A stretch of DNA of 64,000 nt from an uncultured Candidatus Saccharibacteria bacterium (GTDB lineage Bacteria > Patescibacteriota > Minisyncoccia > UBA6257 > 1-14-0-10-44-23): the NCBI GenBank assembly GCA_964641225.1, contig CAZXKC010000005.1:32134-96133 (forward strand). The letters run 5' to 3'. Positions 3,391 to 55,043 of the stretch are shown one piece after another. Within the stretch, counting starts at the first letter, position 1, and each line of letters begins with the position of its first letter. Both the position numbers and the translations under genes were made by a program. The notes below the pieces were generated by a model. That model saw only the letters and a list, made by a program, of their open reading frames with translations. It did no database searches and had not been told where the DNA came from.

Positions 3391-3520
3391 GCCCTTTAAT
3401 GTACTATGAGCGCGAATAGCGCACTATATTAAAAAATTGACGGTGTAGTCTGTATTACGATAACGATAGCTCAAGTGTAGCAGACTTTAGAAAAAAGCGC
3501 CGTCTGAATTTCGGCCAGAA

Positions 3521-3966: not shown

Positions 3967-4022
3967 TAAAGATCAGAATATAATTATACGCCTTTTTTAT
4001 AAGGCGTCAAGAAGCGCGATTT

Positions 4023-5159: not shown

Positions 5160-5169
5160 AAACTATATC

Positions 5170-5610
5170 TTAGTACCAATCAACTAGTTCAGTAAAGCGG
5201 ACATAAAAACCAAACGGATCAACTACTCTAAAATCTTTTTTATTCCAACGTTTAAGCGTAAGCGGTTGAGCGATTTGCTCGGGCAATAATTTTTCTTTTA
5301 TTGAATTCCAAAATTCTTCAACATCAGAAACGGGGATAGTTATTTCTACCTCATATCCTCTACGAGTACCGACTGGGAAATCTTTAAAGAATGAGTGTTG
5401 CGAAACTTTTTCTTTATCTCCGTAAAAGTTCAGATGCGTTTCGCCCAGGGCGTCAGCTCTTTTTAGAATCATATAACCAAGGTCGCTATTCCCGCCACTC
5501 TGTGGGTCATAGCGTAATTGCGTAAAACCAAATAATCCATAGAAATCACGGGCTTTTTGAAAGTCCGGAACATGAAGTTCCAGAACTAAATTATTGATAA
5601 CTTTATCCAT
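5170..5610 (-). CDS. VOC/glyoxalase-bleomycin resistance family protein
   Basis: 146-aa protein with paired beta-alpha-beta-beta-beta modules typical of the vicinal oxygen chelate fold. The assignment is from similarity only. Confidence 0.6.
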   Translation of the reverse strand: MDKVINNLVLELHVPDFQKARDFYGLFGFTQLRYDPQSGGNSDLGYMILKRADALGETHLNFYGDKEKVSQHSFFKDFPVGTRRGYEVEITIPVSDVEEFWNSIKEKLLPEQIAQPLTLKRWNKKDFRVVDPFGFYVRFTELVDWY

Positions 5611-5683
5611 GGTACCAGTAGTAAGAATCGAACTTACGTCTCGGCCTTATGAAAGCCTCGCTCTACCATTGAGCTATACTGGC
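5610..5683 (-). tRNA. tRNA-Met (anticodon CAT; could instead be the lysidine Ile2 species)
   Basis: Reverse complement folds as a cloverleaf: acceptor GCCAGTA/TACTGGT, D-arm GCTC-AATGGTA-GAGC, anticodon loop TTCATAA, T-arm GTAAG-TTCGATT-CTTAC, 3' CCA encoded. Confidence 0.85.
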
Positions 5684-5805
5684 ATCGCTCGGTTCTTTGT
5701 TTTCTGACAGGACTCACCCTTCGGGATTGCCATAAAACAAAGATCCTCTCTCCTACAATTACAAAAGATATACTACCGATTTTTGAGACTTATTGCAATG
5801 TTTGC

Positions 5806-6300
5806 TTGTGCGGGTGTAGACTGACTATGAACCGGCTGAAGTGGTGGCCGGAAGGAGGTGATCATGGCCTGGTTCGGAGGAGAGGGTTCTGGGGGTGGCT
5901 CCGCCACCTACAGACCTCGGAGGATGTTCGATGCCGGGTTCTCTGGTGCTCGCGGGATCAAGCCAGATCCTCTTCCTGCTGGGACCGGCAAGTCGCTGGT
6001 CGGAAGGGCGCACGTGTCCTACGCCTGCTCTGAAAGGCCCTGGGAGGGGCCGGCCGAGTGGGCTCGTCCCACGACGGTCGGCGACCCGCCCGACTGGCAC
6101 AGTCCGTAGGCAGGTCACTGCAGCGAGGGATGCCGGGCGCGCAACGCGCGCCCGGCACTTCGATTTATCCCCTTTGACGATTCTAGTATTTTGCTTTATA
6201 ATTACAACTTACCGGTCAACTGACAGCGGAGTAGGGAAACGGTATCCCGCCACGCTCATAACGTGGAGATAGGACGTTCGACTCGTCTCTCCGCAACCCT
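5806..6300. ncRNA. High-GC non-coding island with tRNA-like 3' end; candidate structured RNA (intron-containing tRNA or other) of unresolved identity
   Basis: No credible ORF. There is a perfect 11-bp hairpin GCCGGGCGCGC-aac-GCGCGCCCGGC. The 3' end has a T-arm-like GGACG-TTCGACT-CGTCT followed by CTCCGCA-A-CCC, which can pair with 5' TGCGGG at 5809-5814. Confidence 0.25.
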
Positions 6301-6436
6301 GTAGTACAAACTCGACCGCACGCGCTTCGCGCCGGCGTTGTTGTTAGTCAAGCGTTTTCCGAATTACTATCTTTTTACTTAGCTAGCAATTTTCTAGCAT
6401 TGAAAGTCGAGTTTGACTCCGTGGGCGTAGCACTAC

Positions 6437-8977
6437 TTAGCCCCCTTTTTTCCCGAGTAATTTAGCGTATTTTTGGAACTGGTCGCCTTTTTCATTAAAG
6501 TCTTTCCAGAGGCTGTAGCTCGGCGAAGCCGTTGAAAGGAGGCAGATGCTCCCCTGCGGCGTATGTTTATACGCGAACGCAATTGCATCTTTCATTTTTT
6601 CTGTCCGGAAAATGTTTAAGTCGGTTGCTTCTACAAATAATCGATTGCCGGTATCCGGGAACAGTACAATATTTTTGATGCCAGCGACTCTAATTTTTGC
6701 CTCTAGTGTTTTAAAGTCATAGCCGCGATCTTCGCCGCCAAGGAAAATAGTTCCTACGTTTTTCAAAGAACGTAGCGCCATAATTGTTGATTCTGGAGTG
6801 GTCGAAATTGCGTCGTCGTAAAACGTGATGCCTTTAAATGTTCCGACTTTTTCAAGTCTGTGCGGGAGCGGTTTAAAGTTTAGTATTGCTTCTCGAATGA
6901 TTTCATCGGGCACAGAAAGCATTTTGGCGACGGTGACTGCAGCGCGAACATTATTGTAATTATGGACGCCGATTAGTGGCAGCTCGTCTTGGCTGACGGG
7001 AAGCTCGGTCGTAAATGGCACTGTTTTTGACCGCGCCTCTTTCGCCCACTCTACGAGGCGGTGATCTTCAGGGTTAAATACAAATGAGTCGTCGCGACGC
7101 TGGAATTTAATAATGTTCTTTTTAGCCAGATAATACGGCTCCTCTCCTTGATGATACGGCAGATGTTCCGGGAATAAATTTGAAATTACGGCGATGTTTG
7201 GTGAATAGCGGCTGTCGTCAAGCTGGTGGCTCGAAAGTTCTAATACAAAAATTTCCCGTGGATCAACCGAGCGCTTGAGTGCGCCAAGCATTGGTACGCC
7301 GATATTGCCAAGCAGGCTTACTTTTTTGCCGGCTTTTTTGAGAATTGCGTAAATGAGTGAGGAGGTTGTGCTTTTGCCTTTTGTGCCCGTGACACCAATG
7401 GTCAAATTGGAGATTTGTGAGAAAAAAAGATTGGTCGCCGTTGTGTACGGAATACTAACAAAGCGTTTTGGAATACCCGGCGTTTTGATGGCGATATCAA
7501 AGTCGGCCTGCATCTGCAGATAGTTTTTACTACGATTCTGGTCGGCAATTCCAAGTTTGAGTTTTGGGAATTTTTTCCGCATAAATTCCTGCGTCACTTT
7601 TCCTTCTTTGCCGTAGCCAAGAATAAGTGCGGTTTTCATACCCGAAAATCTAAACGGAGCAGGTATCAGAGGTGAATCTTGTGTTTTCATCACTCGAGCA
7701 ATCGTCTCTGGAGTTACGGCTAGCTGGTGTTCAAGCGTTTTAAAGACAATAGTTTTTCCATAAATTTTTCTACTCAAATGCAGTGCAGTCTGTACCTCTT
7801 CAAAGGTTCCCACGCAGTCGAATGGTTTGAGGTTACCCTGCCCTATTAAATCTTTAAAGAGCGGCACGAGTGTTTCATCTTCAAACAAATTTTTTCCAAA
7901 AATTGAGATGAGTTTTTTCTTTGGCAGCCATGGCGCTAGAATCGCAAAGACAAACGCACATTTTGCGCAGACGCCGCACCATTTAGTAGTAGACGGTAGT
8001 GAGTAGTCAGTAGACAGCGGGTTGATTTTTGCGACTGCATTGCAACTACTAAAGGCTGAGAAGTATTTTGGATAGGTGCTGAATAATTTTGCGATCCGCA
8101 ACTCGTAAAATGGTCTCAGAATCGAGAAGTAGGTTATGTTTGGCGTCACAAAATTGCGGATGTATTCCTGAAACAGCGTTTCAAATTCTTGCGACTTACT
8201 CCACTGATGATTAATAATTTCCCCTTTGTATTCTAAATTACCAAAGTTGCTGCTAAATTCGTTGGCAACAATTGTGTAGCGATAATCGTAGAGCGCCGCA
8301 GCAAATACGCCGATCCATGCTAACACTGCAGAAATTGGTATGTGTCCGTTAAAGCTATCGGGGTGTTTTTCGAAAATTTGTGGATCGAGCTCCCGGGAAA
8401 TGATCAGGCTTGGCAATTTGGTCGCCTTCATTACGCTCTGGGCTTGCAGGTTTGGTTTTTGTGTCTCGATTAAGATCGCCGTCGCATCTATTTTTTGCTC
8501 TTTAAGGAGCTCGACGGCAACCAGCGAGTCTTTGCCGCCACCGATGCCGATCAGCGAGCGATTACTGCGTTTAAAATCAACGGATTCCGGGCGATGTTCT
8601 GCCGAGCCTGGGAATAATGCTAGTACGCCCGGCTCAAGGTTGTTGCGATATAAAAATTCGCCCAGACCTTTTCTGTACACGGTGTTCCAAAATATGGCCT
8701 GCTCGGGCGAAATTGGTTGATTAAGTTTGATCTCCGGCGGACAGTAGAGTTTGTAATAGCTGATGCCGATAATCAGGTGTAGTCCCTGTAAAATATTTTC
8801 AAGCAATTGCGGCGGAATATCGGCAGAGATTTTTTGGTTGTATGGAAGCGTCAGTTTTTCGGTGAATATCAGCGGCTGGCGATTTGCAAAATGGATCGTG
8901 TAGTTAAATGAGGCCAGGCGCTTTTCCGGTTCAAATGAATAAAACGTGAATTCAAAAATTGTTGGTTTAAGCGTCAT
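6437..8977 (-). CDS. murD: Bifunctional protein: N-terminal QueC-like PP-loop ATP pyrophosphatase domain with CGxCxxC zinc ribbon, fused to C-terminal MurD-type UDP-N-acetylmuramoyl-L-alanine--glutamate ligase
   Basis: N-terminal half has an SGGxDS-like PP-loop (GIGGGKDS) and WCGVCAKC. C-terminal half has the MurD Rossmann N-domain, Mur ligase P-loop GVTGTKGKSTT and a DDAISTTPES-type C-domain; 846 aa. Confidence 0.8.
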   Translation of the reverse strand: MTLKPTIFEFTFYSFEPEKRLASFNYTIHFANRQPLIFTEKLTLPYNQKISADIPPQLLENILQGLHLIIGISYYKLYCPPEIKLNQPISPEQAIFWNTVYRKGLGEFLYRNNLEPGVLALFPGSAEHRPESVDFKRSNRSLIGIGGGKDSLVAVELLKEQKIDATAILIETQKPNLQAQSVMKATKLPSLIISRELDPQIFEKHPDSFNGHIPISAVLAWIGVFAAALYDYRYTIVANEFSSNFGNLEYKGEIINHQWSKSQEFETLFQEYIRNFVTPNITYFSILRPFYELRIAKLFSTYPKYFSAFSSCNAVAKINPLSTDYSLPSTTKWCGVCAKCAFVFAILAPWLPKKKLISIFGKNLFEDETLVPLFKDLIGQGNLKPFDCVGTFEEVQTALHLSRKIYGKTIVFKTLEHQLAVTPETIARVMKTQDSPLIPAPFRFSGMKTALILGYGKEGKVTQEFMRKKFPKLKLGIADQNRSKNYLQMQADFDIAIKTPGIPKRFVSIPYTTATNLFFSQISNLTIGVTGTKGKSTTSSLIYAILKKAGKKVSLLGNIGVPMLGALKRSVDPREIFVLELSSHQLDDSRYSPNIAVISNLFPEHLPYHQGEEPYYLAKKNIIKFQRRDDSFVFNPEDHRLVEWAKEARSKTVPFTTELPVSQDELPLIGVHNYNNVRAAVTVAKMLSVPDEIIREAILNFKPLPHRLEKVGTFKGITFYDDAISTTPESTIMALRSLKNVGTIFLGGEDRGYDFKTLEAKIRVAGIKNIVLFPDTGNRLFVEATDLNIFRTEKMKDAIAFAYKHTPQGSICLLSTASPSYSLWKDFNEKGDQFQKYAKLLGKKGG

Positions 8978-13249: not shown

Positions 13250-13440
13250 ATTTATTTCACATTTTTTGGGGAAGCAGGTGGAACTCCTGCACAGTACCGC
13301 TACGGTTATAGTCCGAGCGCCAGAATGTGATTAGTCTCACTGTCTTAATCCTCGAGTAAGGATGCCAGGCGGATTCGGTGCTCTCCCCAGAACCCGAAAC
13401 CGACCACCCCTCTATCTCGAGATGGGTGTTTTTATTTTTT
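13250..13440 (+). promoter_or_regulatory. Structured 5' leader (~190 nt) ending in an intrinsic terminator immediately upstream of the 13451 ORF; candidate riboswitch/attenuator of unassigned class
   Basis: An extended -10-like TGgTACACT lies upstream. The leader has GGGGAAGCAGG...ACGGUUAUAGUCCGAGCGCC...CCCGAAACCGAC motifs and ends in hairpin CACCCCTCTATCTCGAGATGGGTG (13405-13428) plus TTTTTATTTTTT. Confidence 0.35.
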
Positions 13441-13450
13441 ACTTTTAATC

Positions 13451-15718
13451 ATGCCGGAGTTACGACAACCACGATTTGAAGATGAGGGAGCTGCAACAAC
13501 TACTTCAGAGCGGCCTTTTAGTGGTGAAACACTCGAAGAAGAATTGGAGCGCTTAGAGCAGGAGAAAGCGCAAAGAGAATTAGAGGATCGTTTAGAGCAA
13601 GAACGACTTGAAGCAGAAGAACGTGCTGCTGAGGTTGCCGAAGAAGAGGAACGGATTCAGGCGGAAGATATCTCTCTTATCGAAGCGCTTGGTTCGGATA
13701 AGGTTGAAGTTCGATTTGTTGATCCGGCTGATAAGGCAACGTATCCGCAAGCCAGCTCAGATGGACCAAGCCACCAGGATAAGTCTGGGGTTCCCGTAGC
13801 AAGTCTGCCGCAACGTTTTATAGATGGTAAAAGTCAGAATCCAGACGGTACGTTTGTGGTTGATGAGCTCATGCGCTTAGGTAATGCATCGCCTGAGGGT
13901 CTTGCTCGCGCGCAAAAGCATGACAATGATCTCAATACTCTGCAGTATCATATTTCGGAACCCTTCAAGTCATTTAATGGTGATGGAAAAATGTGGAGGA
14001 CGATCACTCGCGTTAATGCTAACGGAGAAGAGGTTGCTCGAAATTATGAGATTGCGCTTCCTAAAAAGGAAGCAGAGGAAGATGATAATGGAGACCTGCT
14101 TCCGGGTGGTACCAGTGAAGGATTAGGAAATGCGCTCGATTCAGAGGACGATGAGGTGGTCGAAGATGGTTTGCTGGATCCTAATTCGGACGGGCTCGAA
14201 TCCTTGTGGGCCGCCCAAATTTCAGAGCTCGAAAAAAGTAAGGCCTTGAAAGATGCAGAGACTCAGCGAGTCACTGCGCTGAATGTTTCGCCTACTTTAA
14301 GTGCTACAGAGCCTAATGTTTCTGTCATAGCTGCGCAGATGCCGGTTTCTGAAATTTTTGCCACTGAGCCAGGCGTTTCGGCGCAGCCTGAGGCTATAAA
14401 GACACCATCGTTATTTACTGAATCCTTCGCCAGCGCACCATCTGCAGTCAATACGACCGAAAATTTTGCTCTAGAAACAGATTCATTCACTCTTGAGGTC
14501 GCAAACCTGTCTACGCCGGAAGATTCTGTTATTTCATCTCTGGAGCATTTTGCCAATACAGAACCAGTTGTTAGTCATGAGGCTGCGCCTGGGGCTATTA
14601 AGGTATCATCTCACGAGCTACCAGTAGCTCGTGGAGCAGTTGATCTTGCAGTTGAGGTATCTGCGACAACGAGTGAAATAATTTCAGAGCCGGTAGCTCT
14701 TGTTCCAGAAATTTTAAGTGAAGAGAGTGTCGCGGAAAATTCAATAGCAACAGATGCAGCTTCAGAGATTAGCAATGAGTTTACGATTAATTTTTCGTCA
14801 GGTGATTTATTTAAGCCTGAAATCGTCCTGGCTGAAACGATGACGAACGGCGCGCAGACGCATACAGAGACATTTGCGCAGCCCGTCTTTGAAACACCGA
14901 CGGTTGAATTTGATGTAGCTCCTGAGGAGGCTATTACAGAATCTGCACCTGTTACAGAGCTTCACGAGGACGCAATGCCCTCCATTGAATCAGCCGCAGA
15001 GGTTGCTTCTATTCTATTTCCTAAAGAAAAATCAGTGCCTGTTGAAGTCGTAGCTGTCGCGCCGGAAATTGCCCCCACTCAAGTTGTAGCTATCCCGGCC
15101 GCACCGAGAGAGGCAATTACGCTGACGTTTAAAAAAGATATCGCGCAACCGACTGTTGCGCGCATAGAAGCAACGAAACCTAAGTCCGTTGAGGTTTTGA
15201 AAGATGAAGTGCCAGCGGCTAAGGCAAAAGAAGTGGTGCCCCCCCCAGCAGAGAAGGCAGAACCAATTCGGCTTGTTCGGAATGAAGCAGCCCCTATTCC
15301 AGTTGCCCGTAAGGCTGAACAGAAACATGTTGATCAATCGCCGAATGTACCTTCGGTAGAGAAATCAGCAGGTAGAATTTTGAAATTTGAAGATGCTGTT
15401 GCTAATAAAGAGCGCCGCTCCCCTTCGCTAACACCTGAAATATTAAAAACACCCGTTCAGAAAATTTCGAATCCGCTTGTACGATCAAAAGTCCCAGAGG
15501 CTGTGCAGCGTCGACAGGAGCGTGAGGAGCTCCCGACTTTTGCTTCTTCAGTTGTTCGGGCTCGAGAGGTTGCGCGAGTTACCCAAGAGGTGCACAATTT
15601 CAAGCCGCGTAGTACGGCTGCTCTGTCTGACATAATCTCACAAGAAACTCGAGAGCGGCGTATTCTAGACATAGAAGACCTACCGGAGGTTGGAATCCGG
15701 ATGCTTCGTCGAGCCTAA
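13451..15718 (+). CDS. Large acidic low-complexity protein (755 aa), function unknown
   Basis: Long uninterrupted ORF in an AT-rich genome, E/A/S/T/V/P-rich with an N-terminal E/R coiled-coil-like region. No signal peptide or TM segment. Confidence 0.55.
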   Translation: MPELRQPRFEDEGAATTTSERPFSGETLEEELERLEQEKAQRELEDRLEQERLEAEERAAEVAEEEERIQAEDISLIEALGSDKVEVRFVDPADKATYPQASSDGPSHQDKSGVPVASLPQRFIDGKSQNPDGTFVVDELMRLGNASPEGLARAQKHDNDLNTLQYHISEPFKSFNGDGKMWRTITRVNANGEEVARNYEIALPKKEAEEDDNGDLLPGGTSEGLGNALDSEDDEVVEDGLLDPNSDGLESLWAAQISELEKSKALKDAETQRVTALNVSPTLSATEPNVSVIAAQMPVSEIFATEPGVSAQPEAIKTPSLFTESFASAPSAVNTTENFALETDSFTLEVANLSTPEDSVISSLEHFANTEPVVSHEAAPGAIKVSSHELPVARGAVDLAVEVSATTSEIISEPVALVPEILSEESVAENSIATDAASEISNEFTINFSSGDLFKPEIVLAETMTNGAQTHTETFAQPVFETPTVEFDVAPEEAITESAPVTELHEDAMPSIESAAEVASILFPKEKSVPVEVVAVAPEIAPTQVVAIPAAPREAITLTFKKDIAQPTVARIEATKPKSVEVLKDEVPAAKAKEVVPPPAEKAEPIRLVRNEAAPIPVARKAEQKHVDQSPNVPSVEKSAGRILKFEDAVANKERRSPSLTPEILKTPVQKISNPLVRSKVPEAVQRRQEREELPTFASSVVRAREVARVTQEVHNFKPRSTAALSDIISQETRERRILDIEDLPEVGIRMLRRA

Positions 15719-22925: not shown

Positions 22926-23027
22926 CTATATATTCTAGCGTTTTCTGAGCGGATAAGCCATTGACTAGAGGGGCGTGAAAATGATACATAAGTACGTGGA
23001 CAAGAGACAAAACCAAGGAGGGTTCTA

Positions 23028-23384
23028 ATGTCCAAGTTTGTCACGCAGTCGGATCAGGAGGTCACGGTTACGGCACGGGTCGGCGAAACGGCGACTCTGC
23101 ATCTGAAGGGCGCCAGAATGACGGCCGCAATCTTGATGATGGCCTCGAACTTTCTTCGAGCCGGGTGCCCCGTGCAGTTGATCGGTCACGGATTTTGGGC
23201 TCCGAACGAAGATCGCGGAGACGAGCGTAGGGGTATTGAGGAGCAGTTCGGCGCGCTGGCTTGCGGCACCGAGGAGTTCTCGGTCACCGCGCGCGGACCT
23301 CAGGCAGGCACCAAGGGGCACCATTACGGCAGCTTCGTCGTGACGCGTCGTGGTGGTAGTTCCCACGAGCGGGAGATGGATTAA
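23028..23384 (+). CDS. High-GC (~64%) small hypothetical protein (118 aa) with strong SD; foreign cassette
   Basis: AAGGAGG lies 6 nt upstream of the ATG. GC is far above the neighbouring genes. A possible TTGACT -35 is at 22961. A terminator follows directly. Confidence 0.5.
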   Translation: MSKFVTQSDQEVTVTARVGETATLHLKGARMTAAILMMASNFLRAGCPVQLIGHGFWAPNEDRGDERRGIEEQFGALACGTEEFSVTARGPQAGTKGHHYGSFVVTRRGGSSHEREMD

Positions 23385-23390
23385 GTACGA

Positions 23391-23434
23391 CCGCGCCTTT
23401 CGGAGTCATTCCGAAGGGCGCGGCTTCTTTTTTT
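23391..23434 (+). terminator. Intrinsic terminator CCGCGCCTTTCGGA-gtcat-TCCGAAGGGCGCGG + CTTCTTTTTTT
   Basis: 13/14-bp stem followed by a T-run immediately after the 23384 stop. Confidence 0.7.
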
Positions 23435-31278: not shown

Positions 31279-31449
31279 GTTCTACCCTGCTTTCTGTGTA
31301 GGGTCCTTAAAAAAACGAAAGGCACCACAAGGCGCCTAAATCAATACTAGCAAAAAAAGTTAACAAAATCAATTGGAGTTCAAAAATGAGTTAGGACCCT
31401 CTTACGCGGGGTCCCTTTACGGCTCCTTGTGGGAGCGGTGCTGCGACGA

Positions 31450-31791
31450 CTACTCGCTCGCCGGCGCCTCGAGAGGCGGTATCGGACCGTCGTAGTCGGT
31501 CACCGTGAACTCGACGTAGGCGCTGGTCTTCGGATCGCTCGTGACGCAGAGCATGTGCCCCTTCGTGGTGATGGTCAGCACGTAGTCGAATGATGTGCCG
31601 TTCCCCTGGGCCTTGACGGACTGGATCCGGGAAGTCCGACCCGGTCCGGTGTTGTCGGGAATGGATTCCACCGTCAATTCGGCATCTCCTCCAGCCAGGA
31701 GGATCTTGCCCTGCACACGGACCGCTCGCGTATTTGCCGCGAAGATCGGGTGCTTCTGGGCACCGGGAGGTATCAGGAAACAGTGCTGCAT
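31450..31791 (-). CDS. High-GC (~62%) small hypothetical protein (113 aa); foreign cassette
   Basis: ATG at 31789-31791 (MQHCFLIPPG...) is preceded by AAGGAG. The track's 31848 GTG start reads through the SD. A TTGCAA-17/18-TATAAT promoter lies at 31902-31931 (minus strand). A terminator hairpin GGGACCCCGCG...GGGTCC + T-run lies downstream (31385-31420). Confidence 0.5.
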   Translation of the reverse strand: MQHCFLIPPGAQKHPIFAANTRAVRVQGKILLAGGDAELTVESIPDNTGPGRTSRIQSVKAQGNGTSFDYVLTITTKGHMLCVTSDPKTSAYVEFTVTDYDGPIPPLEAPASE

Positions 31792-31972
31792 CGCACACAA
31801 CTCCTTCTGTTCCACGATTTCTAGCCTCCTAGAATATATGTGAAGCACGAATGTGCTTACTTTTTACATACACAAAATAAGCCAGATTTAAGTGGATACA
31901 TATTATAAACATATTTTAAAATTATTTGCAATAAATCGAGTTCTTAAGCTCCTGATACGAGAATTCTTTCTA

Positions 31973-32045
31973 GGTGGACCTGGGGAGAATCGGACTCCCC
32001 CCTCCTCCTTGCAAAGGAGGCGTTCTACCACTGAACTACAGGCCC
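31973..32045 (-). tRNA. tRNA-Cys (anticodon GCA)
   Basis: Reverse complement: GGGCCTG-TA-GTTC-AGTGGTA-GAAC-G-CCTCC-TTTGCAAG... with T-arm GGGAG-TCCGATT-CTCCC, acceptor CAGGTCC, discriminator A, CC. Confidence 0.85.
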
Positions 32046-43074: not shown

Positions 43075-44292
43075 CTAAGCAAGTTCGCCGTAGGCTTGTC
43101 GCACAGCCTTACTGTCTCTAAGCGTTTCGTAATTACGAGAAGTTTTAAAGTAATCGCTCTTTATTTTTTCCATGAGATCATCGAAAACACGCTGACTTGG
43201 ACTGCCTCCTTCAGGATTGAGTATCGTTCTGTCCCATGTCGTTGACATATCCCAAGCCTCTTTCATCTTGTTATAAAGCGTTCCCTCGCCCTCCTGCCCT
43301 TCAAGCACGGTTGCTTTAGCCCAGATAGTCTCAGGGCGCTCGGTGCTTCGGCGAGCTATCACCGTTGGCGTACCAACAATAAGTCCCTCCTCCTGTACCG
43401 TTCCACTGTCTGAAACAATAAGTCGCGCTTCTTTCTCGAGTCGTAGGAAGTCAAAAAAACCAAGCGGCTTTGTTTTAGTAAATGTATCGCTATTAAGTAT
43501 GCTCATGAGCCCAAATTTCTCGATATTTGCTACCGTACGCGGCATCATAGGAAAAACTATCGTCATTTTCTTTTCTTGAGCAAATTTTACAATATCAGTT
43601 AACTTATTTTTCAATATTTCCGCATTCGAAATATTCTCTTCGCGATGAAGACCCATGAGGATGAATTTTTTACTTTCTAGTTTAAGATCCTTAAGGACAC
43701 CTGAGGCATCTACGCGAGGCATCCACTGCTCTACCGCATCCATGATAATATTTCCGATGCAAAGTACTCGGAAATCCGCTATGCCTTCGGCGACTAGTAG
43801 CTCCTTATATCGTGGTAGATAGCTATAGAGTGCGTCAGAAAGATGATCAATCACAATTCGACATTTTTCCTCCGGCATTCGCCAATCGAAACTGCGTCCT
43901 CCTGCCTCAAGATGGATAACTGGGATACCGTACCGCGCAACAATTACCGATGAAAGGACGGTATTTGTGTCTCCGAGATACATTACAGCATCAGGTTTTA
44001 CTTTTTCCAGCATATCGTATACGCGTTCATCGAGAAGGGCTGTCTGCAAAGCATAATTGCTTGCTCCTCGTTCTTTTAACGTTAGTCCTATACCCAAGTC
44101 AATATCTGGTTTGCGAATATTAAGGTCTTTTATAAAATTTCCAAATAGTTCCGGATCATAATGCTGTCCGGAATGAACAAGAATATGTTCGATAGTATCC
44201 TTACCTTTTTCATCTAACAGCTCAATAAGCTTAAACATTCGTATATAGTCTGGGCGAATTCCTAATAAGGTCACTAACTTGAATTTTTTCAT
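43075..44292 (-). CDS. UDP-N-acetylglucosamine 2-epimerase family protein (second copy, NeuC/WecB-like)
   Basis: LGIRPDYIRM, YLGDTNTVLSSVIVA, DSGTVQEEG; 405 aa. Confidence 0.75.
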   Translation of the reverse strand: MKKFKLVTLLGIRPDYIRMFKLIELLDEKGKDTIEHILVHSGQHYDPELFGNFIKDLNIRKPDIDLGIGLTLKERGASNYALQTALLDERVYDMLEKVKPDAVMYLGDTNTVLSSVIVARYGIPVIHLEAGGRSFDWRMPEEKCRIVIDHLSDALYSYLPRYKELLVAEGIADFRVLCIGNIIMDAVEQWMPRVDASGVLKDLKLESKKFILMGLHREENISNAEILKNKLTDIVKFAQEKKMTIVFPMMPRTVANIEKFGLMSILNSDTFTKTKPLGFFDFLRLEKEARLIVSDSGTVQEEGLIVGTPTVIARRSTERPETIWAKATVLEGQEGEGTLYNKMKEAWDMSTTWDRTILNPEGGSPSQRVFDDLMEKIKSDYFKTSRNYETLRDSKAVRQAYGELA

Positions 44293-44339
44293 TACTTAAG
44301 CATCGCAAGAATGGTCTTTGCGCGCAAGGCAGCAATCTA

Positions 44340-44368
44340 TTGACAAAAGAGTGTTTCGGAGGTATAAT
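44340..44368 (+). promoter_or_regulatory. Consensus sigma70 promoter TTGACA-17nt-TATAAT driving the high-GC DUF218-like gene; 10-bp palindrome TTGCGCGCAA immediately upstream
   Basis: Exact -35 (44340-44345) and -10 (44363-44368) hexamers with a 17-nt spacer. AGGAGGG RBS sits 7 nt before the ATG at 44448. Confidence 0.55.
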
Positions 44369-44447
44369 ACTATCCTCTACGGAAGCTGCGATACTGATCG
44401 CATGCATGACCCGTGGAAAGAGAAAATAGGTAGCAGGAGGGTGCGGA

Positions 44448-45137
44448 ATGCCGATTGGACCGGACATCAACAAAGACCCCGACCCGCGTGACGCAGGGGC
44501 CGAGGTCATGGCGTACTGCATGTGGCCGGACAAGATCCGGAGCATGCGCCTACAGCCCGACGTCATCGTCGTCTACACGGGCGACGGGCGTCGGCTCGCC
44601 ACCGCCGCCATCCGCCGCGCTCGGGAGTACCCGAACATCCCCGTCTTCATCGTCGGGCCCGACAGCCTGATGGCGAGCGAGCTGGACGGCCAGATGAACG
44701 CCGAACACCTCAAGGCCGAGATGGTGGGGCATGGAATCGCGGCCGGCCGGATCATCACCGATTCGAGCCCGCAGAGCATCTACACCCACGGCCAGGCCAA
44801 CCAGGCGGCCGTGCGCTTCCGGGAGGAAACCTGGGCCACCATGCTGCTGATCACCAGTCAGCACCATGCGTACCGGGCGTTCATGATCACCCTGGGCGTC
44901 TTCAGCCGGGAAGGCCTGGCCGACCGGGTCGTCATCGTGCCAGACTCCGTCTACGAATTCGGTTTCGGCGAGCACCCGGCGGAATGGAGCGAGGAGTGGC
45001 GACGCCACACTCCCTGGGTCTGTCTCGTTCGGGACGGGATTCCAAAGGTCAGAAGCGGGCAGGAGAAGCACCCGCAGAACTTCGCGCAGAGCGACGTCGC
45101 ACAGCAGTACGTCAGACGCATCACCGCCAAGCTGTAA
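44448..45137 (+). CDS. High-GC (~65%) DUF218/YdcF-like family protein; foreign cassette
   Basis: 229 aa. The conserved DUF218 core is (V)IVVYTGDG...IPVFIVGPDS. It is followed by terminator AAGAGGAGCGG...CCGCTCCTCTT + TTTTTT (45148-45212). Confidence 0.55.
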   Translation: MPIGPDINKDPDPRDAGAEVMAYCMWPDKIRSMRLQPDVIVVYTGDGRRLATAAIRRAREYPNIPVFIVGPDSLMASELDGQMNAEHLKAEMVGHGIAAGRIITDSSPQSIYTHGQANQAAVRFREETWATMLLITSQHHAYRAFMITLGVFSREGLADRVVIVPDSVYEFGFGEHPAEWSEEWRRHTPWVCLVRDGIPKVRSGQEKHPQNFAQSDVAQQYVRRITAKL

Positions 45138-45224
45138 CAGGGGTATGCGTCGGATGGCAGCACAAGAGGAGCGGAAAGTTACGTGAAGTTTACACGTACG
45201 CCGCTCCTCTTGCCTTTTTAATAA

Positions 45225-45253
45225 TTGACTTTTGTTTTTAATAATGCTATAAT
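45225..45253 (+). promoter_or_regulatory. Second consensus-type promoter TTGACT-17nt-TATAAT upstream of the HIT-like ORF
   Basis: -35 at 45225-45230, -10 at 45248-45253. Confidence 0.5.
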
Positions 45254-45441
45254 AGCACTCCGTCAAGTAGATCAGGATTTCCTATTTCACTAACAAGGGA
45301 GATTGTCTCATCGGCACGAAATGGACGTATCGTACGCCTGCCACTCAGGCGGCCTACGACGCAGCACGAGCCTCCGGCACACCGGGAACCGATCCGTTCG
45401 GTGACTGGGCGGAGAGATCCCTCCGATCATTCACCTACTGG

Positions 45442-45681
45442 GTGATCGTCCCGAACAAGTACCCGATGGACGAGATCGCCGCGACGAACCACCTCTTGAT
45501 CCCGAAGCGACCATTCTCGACCGAGGACGAGATGACGCCGGAGGAGCAGCAGGAACTGCGTGAGATCAAGCAGGTGCTGGCCCACGAGCGCGAGTACGAC
45601 TTCATCCTCGAGAACTTTCCCGTCCGACGATCGGTGATGCTGCGGTGGCACCTGCACCTAGTGACCGCCAAGGACACCTGA
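45442..45681 (+). CDS. High-GC HIT-like (histidine-triad-like) domain protein; 5' boundary uncertain (reading frame is open back to 45271 without an ATG/GTG)
   Basis: NHLLIPKRPFSTEDEMTPEEQQEL resembles the HIT xHxLVIPKxH...L..EE region. C-terminal RWHLHLV resembles a degenerate HxHxHxx triad. The track start is GTG at 45442. Confidence 0.4.
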   Translation: MIVPNKYPMDEIAATNHLLIPKRPFSTEDEMTPEEQQELREIKQVLAHEREYDFILENFPVRRSVMLRWHLHLVTAKDT

Positions 45682-45732
45682 TCGCTTCCAGCGAGTTCGC
45701 GCCCCGACCGCAAGGTCGGGGCGCCTTCTCTT

Positions 45733-46611
45733 TTAAAGCGCCTCAATCATTTCTAAGAACGAGGGTACCTCGAGTTTGGTATTAAGATCTTTGACAGTAG
45801 AGAGAACACGGTTTAGTTTTGGTTCGTCATCTTTTTTAATTTCACACGTAATATTGAATTTCTTGGCAAAAACCTGAAGCATTTCGTACTTTGAAACAGT
45901 TGTTGAAAATACATGATAGAGTCCAGACTTTGGATATTTTCCTGGCTCAGACATTATTTTATCGCATACATTGCCAAATTCTTTGGTTGTAATACCGTTC
46001 CAAAAATGATTTGTGTATCCAGTGATTGTTTTGCCGTCCTGCTGCAAAAACCAATCTAATAATCCGGTATGACCCGCTAGTTCGCGCCCAATAATCGAAG
46101 TCCGAATAGTCAGGCACTCGGTCGGCTCGCCTAGACTCTTGGAGAGACCGTAAATATCAACAGGGGTCTTAGGAGAATTTTCGTTGTAAGGGAAACCCGT
46201 CTTGCCGTCAAAGGCGCAATCAGTTGTAATATGGATCAATTTGGAGCCCAGCTCGCGGGCAAGCACATGAGGCAAAGCACCGTTAATAAAAAACGTTAAG
46301 GCTGGGTCTTTAAGCGAAAAAGGAATGGTTACCCCGAGGGCGTTAATAGCGTAATCAAATTCGCCTACAGTTTTAAAAAAGTTTTTTAAATATTCACTTG
46401 GAGATCCTTTCTTTTCAAGAAATTCTTTGTAGAGTATCTCCGCATCAAACGTCGCTACCTTCGCGTTCTGCGCAGTGCCGTATGTATCAGTTAAGAGTTT
46501 TACTTTGCCTTGATCGCGTATAGCCAAAATGAGCTCATATCGGTCTTTAAGCACGCCATATACTGCGCTGCCAAGCATTCCCGTGGCACCAAATAATAGA
46601 ACTTTCTTCAT
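45733..46611 (-). CDS. NAD(P)-dependent sugar-nucleotide reductase, RmlD (dTDP-4-dehydrorhamnose reductase)-like
   Basis: MKKVLLFGATGMLGS Rossmann start, YGLSK catalytic motif, about 290 aa. Start taken at the internal ATG (46611). Confidence 0.65.
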   Translation of the reverse strand: MKKVLLFGATGMLGSAVYGVLKDRYELILAIRDQGKVKLLTDTYGTAQNAKVATFDAEILYKEFLEKKGSPSEYLKNFFKTVGEFDYAINALGVTIPFSLKDPALTFFINGALPHVLARELGSKLIHITTDCAFDGKTGFPYNENSPKTPVDIYGLSKSLGEPTECLTIRTSIIGRELAGHTGLLDWFLQQDGKTITGYTNHFWNGITTKEFGNVCDKIMSEPGKYPKSGLYHVFSTTVSKYEMLQVFAKKFNITCEIKKDDEPKLNRVLSTVKDLNTKLEVPSFLEMIEAL

Positions 46612-46613
46612 AT

Positions 46614-47039
46614 TTATTCTTCTAGTTTCCAATGGTTCATACCCCAGTAGTCATGAGGAAATCGGAAGTCATCATTTTTCGAATCGACAATCGTTGCTGT
46701 TGAAAAAAACAAAATTTTTGTTTGCGGGGTAATCGATCGGGTCCCGTTCGCATAGCCGCCGGGAATATGGAGAATCGAGGGCTCGTCGCTATCTAAAATA
46801 AAACGCTGCACTTTGTTTTTTGGGTTCGGTTTTTTTGCGTTGTCAACTGCTACGACACAGACTATCGCTTTACCGTGTGGCACGTACACAAATTTTTCCT
46901 CTTTCATGTGTCCATGAAATGCGCGAATTTCGTTTGAGTCTATATTTTCTATGATATAGAAACGTTTGACGCCCGAGAAATCAAATTCGTTAATGAATCC
47001 GACGCTACCTCGATGATCTTTTGCAAGGCCCCCCTTCAT
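46614..47039 (-). CDS. Cupin sugar 3,4-ketoisomerase, FdtA/QdtA (WxcM C-terminal domain)-like
   Basis: DHRGSVGFINEFDFSGVKRFYIIEN...HGH matches the FdtA family. Start trimmed to the ATG at 47039 to remove overlap with the upstream gene. Confidence 0.6.
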   Translation of the reverse strand: MKGGLAKDHRGSVGFINEFDFSGVKRFYIIENIDSNEIRAFHGHMKEEKFVYVPHGKAIVCVVAVDNAKKPNPKNKVQRFILDSDEPSILHIPGGYANGTRSITPQTKILFFSTATIVDSKNDDFRFPHDYWGMNHWKLEE

Positions 47040-47070
47040 GTGTCGGGGCAGTCTCTTTACCGAGGGCTTT

Positions 47071-48021
47071 TTAGCGGAGCGTTCCATTTTTTTCAAGGCC
47101 CTTAAGGAATTTATCATTGAAAAATATAGCCTCATCACTATAGCGAAGTCGGCCCGAGGTCACTACATCTTTAATCTGGTTAGCGCCATCGGTTATACTG
47201 TATGTTTTTTCAAACTTTAGCAGTCCGGCTTTTTGCGCTTTTGCGTTAGAAACCCGATAGTTGCGTTGGTCTTCGAATTGCATATCTACATACGTTATCT
47301 TTGCTCCAGTAAGGTCGGCTACTTCTTTTCCTAAGTCGCGCATCTGATAATTCTTGTACGATATGTTAAATACTCCTCGTTCTTTGCTTTCGAGAGCATT
47401 TATCAAAGCTTCAGCAACATTTCTGACGTGCACAAGTGGTCTCCATTGCTCACCGCCAAAAACAGACAAGCTGCCTTTTTGGATAGCATTAGCGGTCATA
47501 TAGTTAACAACTAAATCCATGCGAATACGCGAATAGGTGTCACTGACGCCATACACCGTGCCAAGACGAATACTCAGGGCATTTTTACCGTCTAAAGCCT
47601 TTTCGCCGGCCACCTTAGTTATTGCATAGAGAGAAAGCGGATTGGGCGCAGCATCTTCAGTTAATTCGCCGTTGTTTTTACCGTAGACAGAGCAGGTCGA
47701 GGTAAATACGATACGGCCGTCAAAGTTTTTTGCGAGCCACTCGATTGGTTTCTGATTTATGGCTACCGTAAGCTCCGGATTAACCTGACAGGCTCCGTCG
47801 CCGACCAGAGCAGCAAGCCAGATAACGTGTGTATAGTTAGGTAAAATTTTCTTCAGCTTTTCGGTATCTCGAATATCTCCATTGATAAAATCTACCGGTT
47901 TAAGGTATTGGTGTTCATAAACCAAATTATCATAGACCGTGAAAGGAACATTCCGCTTAGTCAAAATATCTGTTACTGCTCCGCCGATATAGCCTGCTCC
48001 GCCAACAATAAGGACTTTCAT
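47071..48021 (-). CDS. NAD-dependent epimerase/dehydratase (extended SDR)
   Basis: MKVLIVGGAGYIGG Rossmann motif, YAITK catalytic YxxxK. Start taken at the internal ATG at 48021. Confidence 0.8.
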   Translation of the reverse strand: MKVLIVGGAGYIGGAVTDILTKRNVPFTVYDNLVYEHQYLKPVDFINGDIRDTEKLKKILPNYTHVIWLAALVGDGACQVNPELTVAINQKPIEWLAKNFDGRIVFTSTCSVYGKNNGELTEDAAPNPLSLYAITKVAGEKALDGKNALSIRLGTVYGVSDTYSRIRMDLVVNYMTANAIQKGSLSVFGGEQWRPLVHVRNVAEALINALESKERGVFNISYKNYQMRDLGKEVADLTGAKITYVDMQFEDQRNYRVSNAKAQKAGLLKFEKTYSITDGANQIKDVVTSGRLRYSDEAIFFNDKFLKGLEKNGTLR

Positions 48022-48052
48022 GTATCTTATAATACTGGGTTTTGGCACGAAA

Positions 48053-49324
48053 TCAAACCGAATCATTTAATAGACTCCAACCCTTCGATAACACAAAGCG
48101 CAGCCAATACCCTGCTCCGAGAGAGGTTACAATTGCGATTAGTACGAGAACAGCAAAGAATGTTTCATTAATAATCCCAAGGTCAAATGCAACAGTAGCA
48201 AGCACAATACCTGGTCCCCCGCGAGCATTCATCGCGACACCCAGGTTGAAACTTGAACGCCAATCCTGCCCTGCTAATTTCGCCGCGATCACTGTCCCTA
48301 AAGTCTTCATGAGTACGGCCAGGGCCAAGAAACCTAAGAAAAACATCAGGTCAAAATGATGAATTAGGTCAAGTTTTAGGCCAACTACTGCAAAATATAT
48401 AGGAATGAAAAATCCAAGACCAATCTCTTTTATGTGTACTTTTACGCTAGTAATTTTTTCATTTGATGTCATCCCCACCACTATGCCTGCTAAAAACGCG
48501 CCAAAAATAATGTTAATGCTTAAAATGCTCGCAATTGCGGCAAACAGAAAGCACATAAAAAGAACATAGCCTGTTGCCGAAGATTTTATCAGTAAATTGA
48601 AACGTGATTTATTGACCCAATCAAAAAGTTTCGGTAACACCAATAAGGCAATCGCAAAAAACGCCAATGTGAGCAGTACCTTTGAAGCAATGGTTGAAAC
48701 AGAAATAGCTTGGCCGCCCGCCAAAGCAGTTGCAATGGCAAGAGCGACCCACAGCAGAACATCTTCGATGGTTGCCGTTGCCAAAACAATTTTCGCAAAG
48801 CGGGTATGTATTATGCCAAGATCTATGAATATCTTAGAAATTACCGGGATTGAAGTTACTGCAATCGCAATTGCGATTACAATAGTGAATGAAAGAACTG
48901 TTCCTTTTGCTCCCATGTATGAGGAAAAATCATACAACTTAGGAATAAACCATCCTACGACAAAAGGAATGATAGTTGCGCCGAGTAAAATTGCGCCAAT
49001 AAGTTTTTTGTCGGCTTTATTGATTGATCGTTGGATCTCAAATCCGGATATGAACATCAACAAAATCAATCCAATCCAATAAATAGTCGCAATCAGTTGC
49101 CCTTCTGAGGAAAACGCCTGGAATATCCATGTATACGCTGCCGGAAATAAGAATCCGAGCACGGTTGGCCCTAGTACAAGCCCGCCAATAATTTCTCCGA
49201 TAACTTTAGGAATACCAAATAGCCGCTGAAAAAGATACCCGAAACCATGAGCAGAGGCAAGAAGCAGGACTAGCGCAAAAAATACCCGTGTGAGTTCGAA
49301 TTCGCTCAAAGTAATACCAGGCAT
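48053..49324 (-). CDS. Cation:proton antiporter (CPA family Na+/H+ or K+/H+ exchanger)
   Basis: 423 aa, about 12 TM, N-terminal GEIIGGLVLGP motif typical of KefB/NhaP-type exchangers. Confidence 0.8.
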   Translation of the reverse strand: MPGITLSEFELTRVFFALVLLLASAHGFGYLFQRLFGIPKVIGEIIGGLVLGPTVLGFLFPAAYTWIFQAFSSEGQLIATIYWIGLILLMFISGFEIQRSINKADKKLIGAILLGATIIPFVVGWFIPKLYDFSSYMGAKGTVLSFTIVIAIAIAVTSIPVISKIFIDLGIIHTRFAKIVLATATIEDVLLWVALAIATALAGGQAISVSTIASKVLLTLAFFAIALLVLPKLFDWVNKSRFNLLIKSSATGYVLFMCFLFAAIASILSINIIFGAFLAGIVVGMTSNEKITSVKVHIKEIGLGFFIPIYFAVVGLKLDLIHHFDLMFFLGFLALAVLMKTLGTVIAAKLAGQDWRSSFNLGVAMNARGGPGIVLATVAFDLGIINETFFAVLVLIAIVTSLGAGYWLRFVLSKGWSLLNDSV

Positions 49325-54965: not shown

Positions 54966-55043
54966 ACATTTTTAAATAAAAATTAAACTACTTTAATAAA
55001 GTAGTAGGATTATAATCGATTTTTCAGGGATGTCAATTTGAAA

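Follow-up and report, generated by a model that had tools for sequence, protein, structure and literature searches.

Two antisense expression units in a nucleotide-sugar operon

Positions 44294–45732 of the window (the whole stretch of 64,000 nt that was analyzed) contain two self-contained transcription units, each composed of a sigma70 promoter, a strong Shine-Dalgarno (SD) sequence, a high-GC coding sequence (CDS), and a hairpin of approximately −30 kcal/mol. Both units are on the plus strand, antisense to a minus-strand operon, and lie between the genes for an RmlD-like reductase and a WecB-like 2-epimerase. The operon gene order is SDR dehydratase, cupin epimerase-like, RmlD-like reductase, the cassette, and WecB-like 2-epimerase. 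The WecB-like product (43075–44292) matches Pfam Epimerase_2 with an E value of 2e-70 and scores 210 bits against NCBIfam wecB, for which the cutoff is 210.15; relatives with 62–79% identity are found in CPR MAGs. The Pfam and NCBIfam assignments of both neighbors bear out the glycan context described in the initial annotation, which was made from the letters alone. The window also encodes groES/groEL and tRNAs. The features of the locus are as follows.

43075–44292, minus strand: WecB-like UDP-GlcNAc 2-epimerase family gene; downstream operon flank, with its start codon abutting the left edge of the cassette
44340–44368, plus strand: promoter P1, TTGACA-17-TATAAT; 12/12 consensus match
44435–44440, plus strand: Shine-Dalgarno AGGAGG, 7 nt upstream of the ATG at 44448
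44448–45137, plus strand: ORF1, 229 aa, predicted cytosolic YdcF-like DUF218 protein; GC 0.657, GC3 0.87
45156–45219, plus strand: terminator T1; perfect 12-bp arms (45163–45174 and 45201–45212), an inner hairpin, then CCTTTTT
45225–45253, plus strand: promoter P2, TTGACT-17-TATAAT; 11/12, with a TG-extended −10
45295–45301, plus strand: Shine-Dalgarno AAGGGAG, 8 nt upstream of the ATC at 45310
45310–45681, plus strand: ORF2, about 123 codons, orphan, HIT-like below threshold; motifs NKYP...HLLIPKR...WHLHLV
45699–45733, plus strand: terminator T2; 11-bp GC stem followed by CTTCTCTTTT
45733–46632, minus strand: RmlD-like NAD-dependent sugar reductase gene; upstream operon flank; Pfam RmlD_sub_bind / Epimerase, NCBIfam rmlD-like

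The GC content is 0.65 at 44401–44800 and 0.625 at 44801–45200 versus 0.453 for the whole window, and the GC3 values of ORF1 (0.87) and ORF2 (0.81) exceed those of the 49 native ORFs (mean 0.42, maximum 0.62). The jump in composition noted initially is therefore confirmed, as are the promoters, SD sites, and hairpin terminators of both units. The promoters and the spacer of the cassette are low-GC and native-like; the GC boundaries are sharp at the CDS edges. Terminator T1 folds with −30.0 kcal/mol (z −4.9) and T2 with −30.6 kcal/mol (z −5.5); the T-run of T2 overlaps the stop codon of the adjoining reductase gene. A comparison of the 80-nt leader and the spacer with Rfam gave no credible match to a riboswitch or known RNA.

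Residues 38–148 of ORF1 match Pfam DUF218 (PF02698) with 34 bits and an E value of 3.2e-8, above the gathering cutoff of 27.6. The predicted fold, from a confident model, is the YdcF-type alpha/beta fold (adenine-nucleotide-alpha-hydrolase-like), and the fold matches ranked after YdcF are nucleotide-binding USP/HUP and CARF-like domains. ORF1 shares its fold with Escherichia coli YdcF (PDB 3ca8); however, the two are only 14% identical, and ORF1 has its own subfamily motifs (FTGDG, GPDNL, YTHGQA, HxxRA, and PRIxxYQ) and a C-terminal helical extension. In subfamily alignments, T44 and H140 vary little or not at all, and D105 is invariant in alignment A3. YdcF is a cytosolic, SAM-binding DUF218 protein. 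The DUF218 paralogs SanA and ElyC are genetically linked to how envelope glycan (ECA) is balanced against peptidoglycan precursors, on which they act, and a conserved putative Thr/His/Glu catalytic triad has been reported in SanA (PMC12176290). ORF1 belongs to the same domain family as ElyC and SanA, and their glycan linkage fits its operon context. In contrast to these inner-membrane-anchored, periplasm-facing proteins of Enterobacterales, ORF1 lacks a hydrophobic N-terminus and in this resembles YdcF. Its closest homolog among 1.84 billion representative proteins, standing for about 15 billion, is 34% identical. A search of 5.8 billion clusters returned only the self-match and no close homolog, and a profile of the ORF1 family found no match among PDB sequences. 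ORF1 is a member of a rare family, and the members of its branch with known origin are CPR proteins.

ORF2 is less clearly defined. It has no ATG, GTG, or TTG before 45442, where the first in-frame GTG lies; the SD-proximal codon is ATC, and the coding signature is weaker across the first 42 codons. ORF2 may thus be a gene in decay, or its translation may begin at a non-canonical codon. Its scores are below the Pfam gathering scores for two HIT-clan families (HIT, 13.7 bits, cutoff 21.5; DcpS_C, 14.2 bits, cutoff 24; E values of 0.06–0.1), although in a consistent register. We take NKYP...HLLIPKR and WHLHLV to resemble the beta-strand and histidine-triad regions of HIT proteins. Unlike the HIT superfamily (HINT, Fhit, GalT, DcpS), ORF2 has only two of the three triad histidines, with Arg replacing the first in the C-terminal motif R-W-H-L-H-L-V, and it lacks a canonical start. 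No match to PDB sequences was found at E values up to 10, and no homologs were found outside its own genome or sample. With no homologs for an MSA, the single-sequence AF2 model (pLDDT 39) is unusable. ORF2 is possibly a HIT-type nucleotide hydrolase or transferase. Of the two product assignments made initially, DUF218 therefore stands, whereas HIT stays below threshold.

Other cassettes in the window and the same site in relatives

Three more cassettes of the same architecture are present in the window, at 5864–6109, 23028–23384, and 31450–31791; the latter two had been pointed out before. Cassettes A–C are orphans confined to this genome or sample. Cassettes A and C have tRNA genes as neighbors, unlike D and E. 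Comparison of the five cassettes in the window revealed no common modules and no common imperfect palindrome. No NCBIfam family is matched by any cassette protein, and PHROGs gave no meaningful match. A 5-mer SD is found at 5/5 cassette ORFs versus 0/50 native ORFs in the window (Fisher p = 3e-7), and among native ORFs of relatives the count is 4/114. The window contains six sigma70 sites with at least 11/12 matches versus 1.4 expected in Markov-1 random sequence. Because the four outside the two units precede native or RNA genes (an upstream ORF at 1961, groES at 55036, a structured RNA at 4010, and tRNA-Met at 6174), consensus promoters are not exclusive to the cassettes. The initial observation on poor SD sequences at the surrounding genes is borne out.

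The site between the reductase and epimerase genes is occupied, with the same orientation and architecture, in at least four CPR lineages separated by deep divergence (L007, L009, L015, and L018). It is empty in 10 related MAGs (L008, L010–L014, L016, L017, L019, and L020), in which the reductase–epimerase spacer is 0–25 nt. A homolog is present in 5 of about 15 relatives, a patchy distribution. Among occupied lineages, the flanking epimerase is 66–78% identical and the DUF218 gene 28–47%; L086 and L018 are one population (99.97%), and comparison of flank with cassette divergence in that pair is thus uninformative. The DUF218 gene has a GC3 of 0.70–0.87 in host genomes of 0.36–0.50 GC and does not track host GC. 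The homolog in L087 adjoins a different WecB-like paralog, so function and not position may underlie the association.

In an NJ tree built without bootstrapping, ORF1 clusters with the site-occupying CPR copies, apart from copies in uniformly high-GC contigs; this grouping includes P0003, P0006, P0013, and P0026, members of unplaced genomic context. P0004 bears the name Ca. Colwellbacteria and P0009 the name Ca. Ryanbacteria. The initial annotation had stated that best matches in the same CPR lineage with similar GC would mark a native high-GC gene rather than a transfer, and this is essentially what is found. Some other family members are compositionally native in contigs of 0.53–0.65 GC, near integrases. 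Sequences in the broad alignment A1 differed too much to serve in DNA-pattern searches for loci; the tighter A2 gave only two metagenome loci.

The companion genes at the site vary by lineage (ORF2, L009_141, and L015_200/297/130). A conserved DUF218 + HIT operon was rejected, as the 128-aa ORF that follows the L006 homolog and the CPR companions are unrelated to ORF2. The YdcF/HIT functional pair envisaged at first is thus not conserved, and its HIT part scores below threshold. ORF2 would be a later, lineage-specific arrival at this site, a small and variable point of insertion.

Origin of the cassette

The junctions and flanks of the cassette have no target-site duplications, for which a comparison of the junctions had been proposed, no terminal inverted repeats, and no attC-like site. 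No integrase or recombinase is among the ORFs listed around it. An integron gene cassette was rejected, since both units come with promoters of their own, the cassettes share no palindrome module, and no integrase is among the ORFs listed nearby; a transposon was rejected for want of transposase, target-site duplication, or terminal-repeat signatures. Phage origin was also rejected, as IMG/VR scans with A2, ORF1, ORF2, B, and C gave no relatives.

Low-GC regulatory parts abutting high-GC CDSs raised the suspicion of an in-silico or engineered insert, and the textbook layout of the expression units, with sharp GC edges at the CDSs, could also be read as an assembly chimera or contamination. The cassette is known from one run only, and the Logan contig stops 23 nt beyond the right junction, which hints that the assembly graph branches there. 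However, in the Logan re-assembly of SRR14271332 (L001), made with an independent assembler, both junctions recur unchanged, with 100% identity over 1,903 bp. A second cassette, B, is present with native flank in NCBI and Logan, and its protein is recorded in NCBI on a contig of 97,327 bp, the length also recorded for the native proteins. Homologous cassettes occupy the same site in MAGs of unrelated studies and samples, and ORF1 is part of a natural family of proteins and has a confidently predicted fold. The cassette is not an assembly artifact, an in-silico or engineered insert (the latter allowed for by the initial annotation) was rejected on these data, and we give artificial origins of any kind almost no weight. 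If a high-GC donor had passed on the cassette recently, the origin favored at first, there would have been too little time for drift to host GC. Such a recent transfer would account for the GC3 gap to native genes and for SD sequences in an otherwise SD-less genome; patchiness among relatives and the family members near integrases in high-GC contigs also speak for it. Against it, the best ORF1 homolog is just 34% identical, ORF1 clusters with same-site CPR copies and not with the high-GC-contig group, the intergenic parts are native-like, unlike an imported donor fragment, and the same architecture recurs where flanks are 66–78% identical. ORF2 and cassettes A–C, which are orphans, may be of recent origin, but as an overall explanation we regard recent acquisition as unlikely.

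The site could alternatively be a recombination hotspot that repeatedly captures or exchanges promoter-CDS-terminator modules, in which case the high GC would be that of a circulating cassette pool. Naturally competent CPR cells could do so, for example, by homologous recombination between conserved flanking sequences or shared regulatory modules. Support for such exchange comes from L009, in which two neighboring cassettes with unrelated CDSs have 36-nt promoter and 81-nt terminator modules in common at 94% identity; the lineage-specific companions, the patchy presence, and a GC3 independent of host GC point the same way. Yet the cassette in the window has no recombinase, attC-like site, target-site duplication, or terminal repeats, the five cassettes there lack common modules, viral contigs and metagenomes yielded no source pool, and the DUF218 copies have diverged as much as an old vertical gene would, which leaves the hotspot rather unlikely. 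A conflict or defense module, in which a DUF218 nucleotide-binding protein and a HIT-like hydrolase unrelated to glycan are parked in a permissive site, is improbable. The USP/HUP and CARF-like fold matches, the fast evolution, and an XRE-type HTH gene in the L015 insertion are consistent with it, as are the neighbors of distant members of the family: in L005, a DAC-domain (diadenylate-cyclase-like) gene follows after a 4-nt gap, and in L003 the surroundings include integrase, S24 peptidase, guanylate-cyclase, and DUF4238 genes. However, these defense-like contexts belong to the high-GC-contig group, whereas the CPR copies, L087 included, are consistently found with WecB-like sugar genes. The DUF218-HIT pairing is not conserved, and a known defense system was rejected, PADLOC giving no match for any cassette protein.

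The reading that we consider probable is that unit 1 has long served a CPR glycan operon as a fast-evolving accessory gene and is neither a recent import nor an artifact, to which unit 2 was added later. The anatomy of the locus, the reality of its sequence, its conservation at the site, the fold of ORF1, and the absence of close homologs are directly supported; from these we infer the age of the insertion, the logic of its insulation, and its biochemical role. Unit 1 would have been tied to this intergenic site, orientation, and packaging since before the sampled lineages split, and elsewhere would have been lost or never gained. Long residence should let GC3 drift toward the host value; such drift is not seen, which counts against an old resident. 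We judge the undrifted GC3 to be explicable only by selection or by ongoing cassette replacement, and the patchy presence in relatives would equally be expected if a hotspot had gained the gene repeatedly.

Possible function and comparison with known systems

With its own sigma70 promoter and strong SD, unit 1 would not depend on the SD-less host operon for its expression. The terminators, strong and acting in one direction, would keep antisense transcription from running into the reductase gene and would still let the operon RNA polymerase pass the cassette on the opposite strand. The probable role of the ORF1 protein is to bind or process an intermediate linked to a nucleotide, such as an NDP-sugar or a glycan precursor on lipid-PP, and its action on that intermediate would tune or alter the surface glycan.

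The cassette resembles a moron, a single ORF with its own sigma70 promoter and factor-independent terminator that lies between genes adjacent in relatives and has deviant composition. Morons were reportedly described in the lambdoid phages HK97 and HK022 by Hendrix, Juhala, and colleagues. Each unit of the cassette likewise has a promoter and terminator around a single ORF of deviant composition, and its neighbors are adjacent in the 10 related MAGs with empty sites. In contrast to morons, it resides in the glycan operon of a cellular CPR chromosome rather than in a phage or prophage, with no viral relatives found; it is antisense to the operon, uses SD sequences in an SD-less genome, and is kept at one site across deeply diverged lineages without drift to host GC. 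A search of the literature on CPR with morons or GC-rich cassettes found nothing relevant. Serotype-converting O-antigen genes are usually carried on prophages, have GC below that of the host, and encode known enzyme families (Gtr, Oac). Like them, the cassette is an independently expressed, patchy, fast-evolving accessory linked to surface glycan; unlike them, it lacks a phage and has GC above that of the host.

CPR/Patescibacteria constitute a large, mostly uncultured share of bacterial diversity, and their surface glycans probably mediate host-cell attachment and phage interactions. Variation in these glycans may be driven by a fast-evolving gene such as this one, with predicted independent expression and a position antisense in a nucleotide-sugar operon that is itself conserved. 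The retention of GC3 values of 0.7–0.9 and strong SD sequences across deeply diverged, low-GC, SD-less lineages contradicts the equation of atypical composition with recent transfer, and it points to selection on mRNA composition or translation-initiation mode, or to unrecognized cassette exchange. It is conceivable, though we advance this only tentatively, that Patescibacteria with SD-less genomes of 36–50% GC harbor a new class of long-lived, promoter-to-terminator, SD-using cassettes with GC3 of 0.7–0.9, in which high GC is actively maintained and is not a remnant of transfer. This would imply either a separate expression regime, with SD-dependent translation of structured GC-rich mRNAs or with mRNAs resistant to AU-directed RNases, or a dedicated "plug-in" mechanism by which promoter/terminator frames are reused for one foreign CDS after another, a possibility hinted at by the duplicated modules of L009. 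Composition-based HGT detectors would misdate the ORF1 gene.

Anatomy and authenticity of the cassette

The high-GC segment at 44294-45732 contains two ORFs on the plus strand. Its GC content is 62-65% in 44401-45200, as compared to a window average of 45.3%, and the GC3 values of its ORFs lie well above those of the native long ORFs (n = 49; mean 0.42, maximum 0.62). The cassette and the operon around it comprise the following features.

43075-44292, minus strand: WecB-family UDP-GlcNAc 2-epimerase, past the cassette
44340-44368, plus strand: sigma70 promoter of ORF1, TTGACA-17-TATAAT, 12/12
44448-45137, plus strand: ORF1 (DUF218, YdcF-like), 229 aa, GC3 0.87; SD AGGAGG, ATG 7 nt downstream
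45225-45253, plus strand: sigma70 promoter of ORF2, TTGACT-17-TATAAT, 11/12
45310-45681, plus strand: open frame of ORF2, GC3 0.81; SD AAGGGAG, 8 nt upstream of 45310
45733-46632, minus strand: RmlD-like reductase
46614-47138, minus strand: cupin-type dTDP-sugar 3,5-epimerase-like protein
47071-48066, minus strand: SDR dehydratase/epimerase

A hairpin of about -30 kcal/mol followed by a T-run lies 3' of each ORF (z -4.9 and -5.5 versus shuffles). The cassette therefore consists of two autonomous promoter-SD-CDS-terminator units, antisense inside the operon, and exactly spans the interval from the reductase stop codon to the epimerase start codon. These GC, GC3, motif, and fold data bear out the composition jump, promoters, SD sites, and terminators described in the initial annotation, and the annotated flanking genes support the glycan/sugar-nucleotide setting that it proposed. 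Beyond the WecB-family epimerase, the minus strand encodes a cytidylyl/adenylyl-transferase, a PK-barrel protein, LicD, a methyltransferase, and a second WecB. The flanking genes appear to specify synthesis of a nucleotide sugar of the 6-deoxy-hexosamine type. The epimerase has its closest relatives, at 62-79% identity, exclusively in Patescibacteria/CPR MAGs, labeled Nomurabacteria, Saccharibacteria, Colwellbacteria, and Parcubacteria.

The joining of low-GC regulatory parts to high-GC coding sequences first suggested a synthetic origin, and an assembly or engineered insert had also been considered in the initial annotation. Three results oppose this explanation. A 1,903-bp Logan contig (L001; run SRR14271332) encodes the identical ORF1 protein and matches window positions 43853-45755 at 100% identity, covering both junctions and native flank. 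Cassette B, one of three further such units in the window, is found with native flank on a second Logan contig (L002), and its protein is on an NCBI record for a 97,327-bp contig, the same size as for GroEL and other native window proteins. Lastly, homologous cassettes occupy the same place in unrelated MAGs. These data make an assembly chimera or engineered insert very unlikely, and the cassette is a real, reproducible feature. The right end of L001 (window position 45755) falls 23 nt beyond the right cassette junction, less than one k-mer, and could reflect an assembly-graph branch, i.e., coexisting variants with and without the cassette.

The insertion site in CPR relatives and the age of the cassette

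The window proteins were compared by tblastn with the 14 closest CPR loci. The site is empty in 10 of the 14 (L008, L010-L014, L016, L017, L019, and L020), with a reductase-epimerase spacing of 0-25 nt. L007, L009, L015, and L018 each have a distant ORF1 homolog (27-32% identity) beside the epimerase gene, likewise antisense; L086 derives from the same population as L018. The homolog is located between the reductase and epimerase genes in L007, L015, and L018, and the L009 contig stops short of where the reductase gene would be expected. All four inserts are GC islands (0.55-0.65) in host genomes of 0.36-0.50. They carry a TTGACA-type promoter, an SD of the GGAGG, AGGAG, GGGAG, or GAGG type, and coding sequences with a GC3 of 0.70-0.81, and they end in a strong hairpin and T-run flush with the stop codon of the neighboring gene. 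Another ORF1 homolog, in L087, adjoins a different WecB-like gene.

The companion genes at this site are all orphans with no relation to one another, namely ORF2, a 141-aa gene of L009, and three genes of L015 (200, 297, and 130 aa). Because the companions are unrelated across lineages, only the DUF218 gene is constant at this small variable insertion site, and DUF218 and HIT do not form a conserved pair, which argues against the functional YdcF/HIT pairing suggested earlier. In L015 the site is expanded to 3.1 kb (4898-8001) and contains the DUF218 gene, a 200-aa high-GC orphan, a 297-aa XRE-type HTH protein, and a 130-aa ORF. Two adjacent high-GC cassettes in L009 have unrelated coding sequences and common regulatory modules at 94% identity, namely a 36-nt promoter module (921-956 and 1513-1548) and an 81-nt terminator module (68-148 and 983-1063). 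Regulatory frames can thus be duplicated around different coding sequences, which suggests that such frames may be copied or reused as cassettes are added. The five window cassettes have no common modules and no terminal repeats, nor did a search of their junctions, as initially advised, reveal target-site duplications.

Recent acquisition from a high-GC donor was the explanation first put forward. ORF1-family members outside CPR are in uniformly high-GC contigs (0.53-0.65) in which gene GC equals contig GC, so a compositionally native high-GC reservoir does exist; their neighbors include integrases, S24 peptidase, DUF4238, guanylate-cyclase, and DAC-domain genes. In an NJ tree of the family, computed without bootstrap, sequences from high-GC contigs form a separate group. 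All CPR-site copies cluster, with ORF1 branching deepest, in a group that includes P0004 (a homolog from Ca. Colwellbacteria according to NCBI) and four sequences of unknown context. In pairwise comparison across the five CPR genomes, the epimerases are 66-78% identical, the reductases 49-66%, and the DUF218 genes 28-47%. The clustering of the CPR-site copies, the divergence of their lineages, and the lack of a donor argue against recent transfer; in essence, the best matches come from the same CPR lineage and have similar GC, which the initial annotation had named as the sign of a native high-GC gene. Read most simply, the data indicate a single old acquisition or a CPR origin, followed by retention at the site, multiple losses, and faster evolution than the flanks. 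The composition is foreign, yet the DUF218 gene is neither recent nor an artifact, and the initial interpretation is supported in part. The cassette can be classed neither as a recent genomic island, having no donor and no mobility marks, nor as an integron cassette.

The GC3 of the DUF218 gene holds at 0.70-0.87 among CPR copies irrespective of host GC, although at such divergence its synonymous sites must be saturated. The sustained high GC3 reflects either selection on composition and SD use or replacement from an unsampled cassette pool. Composition and SD use might be coupled if structured GC-rich mRNAs require an SD where the genome otherwise initiates on AU-rich leaders.

On two high-GC contigs, a distant ORF1-family gene precedes a DAC-domain (diadenylate-cyclase-like, DACNH) gene by 4 nt (L005, 3847-5943) or lies amid integrase, S24 peptidase, guanylate-cyclase, and DUF4238 genes (L003, 6001-11000). 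This other branch of the family may have a nucleotide-signaling or defense context.

Cassette proteins and proposed function

ORF1 matches only itself among 5.8 billion clusters. When 1.84 billion representatives are searched exhaustively with HMMER, 38 proteins are recovered (best, 34% identity). Many have a length of about 190-270 aa, and alignments of the best span nearly the full length; the motifs FTGDG, GPDNL, YTHGQA, HxxRA, and PRIxxYQ are common to them. For ORF2, the sole match in the protein search is its own truncated gene call, and the PDB contains no sequence match. The initial description of a HIT-like second product is plausible but unproven: its matches to the HIT and DcpS_C models are sub-threshold (E 0.06-0.1), and it contains the pattern NKYP...HLLIPKR...WHLHLV, which we take to be HIT-like, with two of three histidines present. 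ORF2 lacks an ATG, GTG, or TTG before 45442, ATC stands beside the SD, and codons 1-42 have a weaker coding signature (GC3 0.57-0.71 versus 0.79-1.0 in the remainder). ORF2 could encode a HIT-type nucleotide hydrolase/transferase with an AUC start, or could be a gene in decay.

As read from the sequence, the cassette terminators have no T-run on the opposite strand, and should thus halt cassette transcription while letting the operon's polymerase pass on the other strand. ORF1 would be a cytosolic YdcF-like enzyme, expressed independently and acting on a nucleotide-linked glycan precursor. Such a role agrees with the genetics of SanA and ElyC, which link both to the balance between envelope glycan and peptidoglycan precursors, and with the SAM and nucleotide-type fold of YdcF (PMC12176290). 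The rapid evolution and patchy presence of the gene are consistent with selection on surface variation, such as phages or hosts might impose. A phage moron has the same anatomy; however, the cassette resides in a cellular operon and has no viral relatives, so it is moron-like in its working and not to be classed as a moron. Our literature search found no paper on such cassettes in CPR.

Promoters, SD sites, and other elements in the window

The same packaging, first noted for cassettes B and C, was confirmed for both and also found in cassette A. These cassettes and an ORF-less unit are as follows.

3495-3962, minus strand: ORF-less unit, about 460 nt, 60% GC, ending in a hairpin and T-run
4010-3983, minus strand: promoter of this unit, TTGACG-16-TATAAT
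5790-6160, plus strand: cassette A, ORF 5864-6109; promoter TTGCAA-18-TAGACT, SD GGAAGGAGG
22926-23432, plus strand: cassette B, ORF 23028-23384; SD AAGGAGG, 14-bp hairpin terminator
31385-31931, minus strand: cassette C, ORF 31450-31791; promoter TTGCAA-18-TATAAT, SD GAAGGAG

A 5-mer SD precedes all five cassette ORFs versus 0 of 50 native ORFs (p = 3e-7, window), and within the window SD sites are exclusive to cassettes. Among native ORFs of related CPR loci (L007-L020), 4/114 have one. Six promoter sites of at least 11/12 occur in the window versus 1.4 expected; the four outside the cassette precede an ORF (at 1961), groES (55036), the ORF-less unit (4010), and a tRNA-Met gene (6174). Since four of the six serve native or RNA genes, consensus promoters are a property of the genome and not only of the cassettes. 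The earlier statement that the surrounding genes have weak SD sites is borne out. The native, perfect sigma70 consensus promoters upstream of the ORF and groES span 1961-1933 and 55036-55009.

The cassette A ORF encodes an 81-aa Gly/Pro/Arg-rich orphan whose GC2 of 0.68 makes it doubtful as a folded protein; the exact protein is absent from a 15-billion-protein collection. Its terminator is a 12-bp GC hairpin (-31.5 kcal/mol). Two tRNA-Met (CAT) genes facing apart flank the cassette (6174-6295, plus strand; 5610-5683, minus strand), the plus-strand gene having its own 11/12 consensus promoter (6174-6202). Cassette B is antisense to both adjacent genes, and its 118-aa orphan has no match in Pfam, PHROG, NCBIfam, or PADLOC. 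Cassette C adjoins tRNA-Ala (31973-32045); its 113-aa orphan product is beta-rich in appearance, with no exact protein on record and no family or viral matches.

The predicted fold of the ORF-less unit is much more stable than those of shuffled sequences (-203.5 kcal/mol, z -7.6). It matches no Rfam family (best score 18.6 bits, chance level), and ARAGORN detects no tmRNA in the window. The unit is a candidate for an unrecognized structured RNA and might represent a divergent housekeeping RNA of CPR. An AdoCbl-II (B12) riboswitch at 13257-13330 (plus strand; 56 bits, above the Rfam gathering score) lies about 120 nt 5' of a 755-aa ORF (13451-15718).
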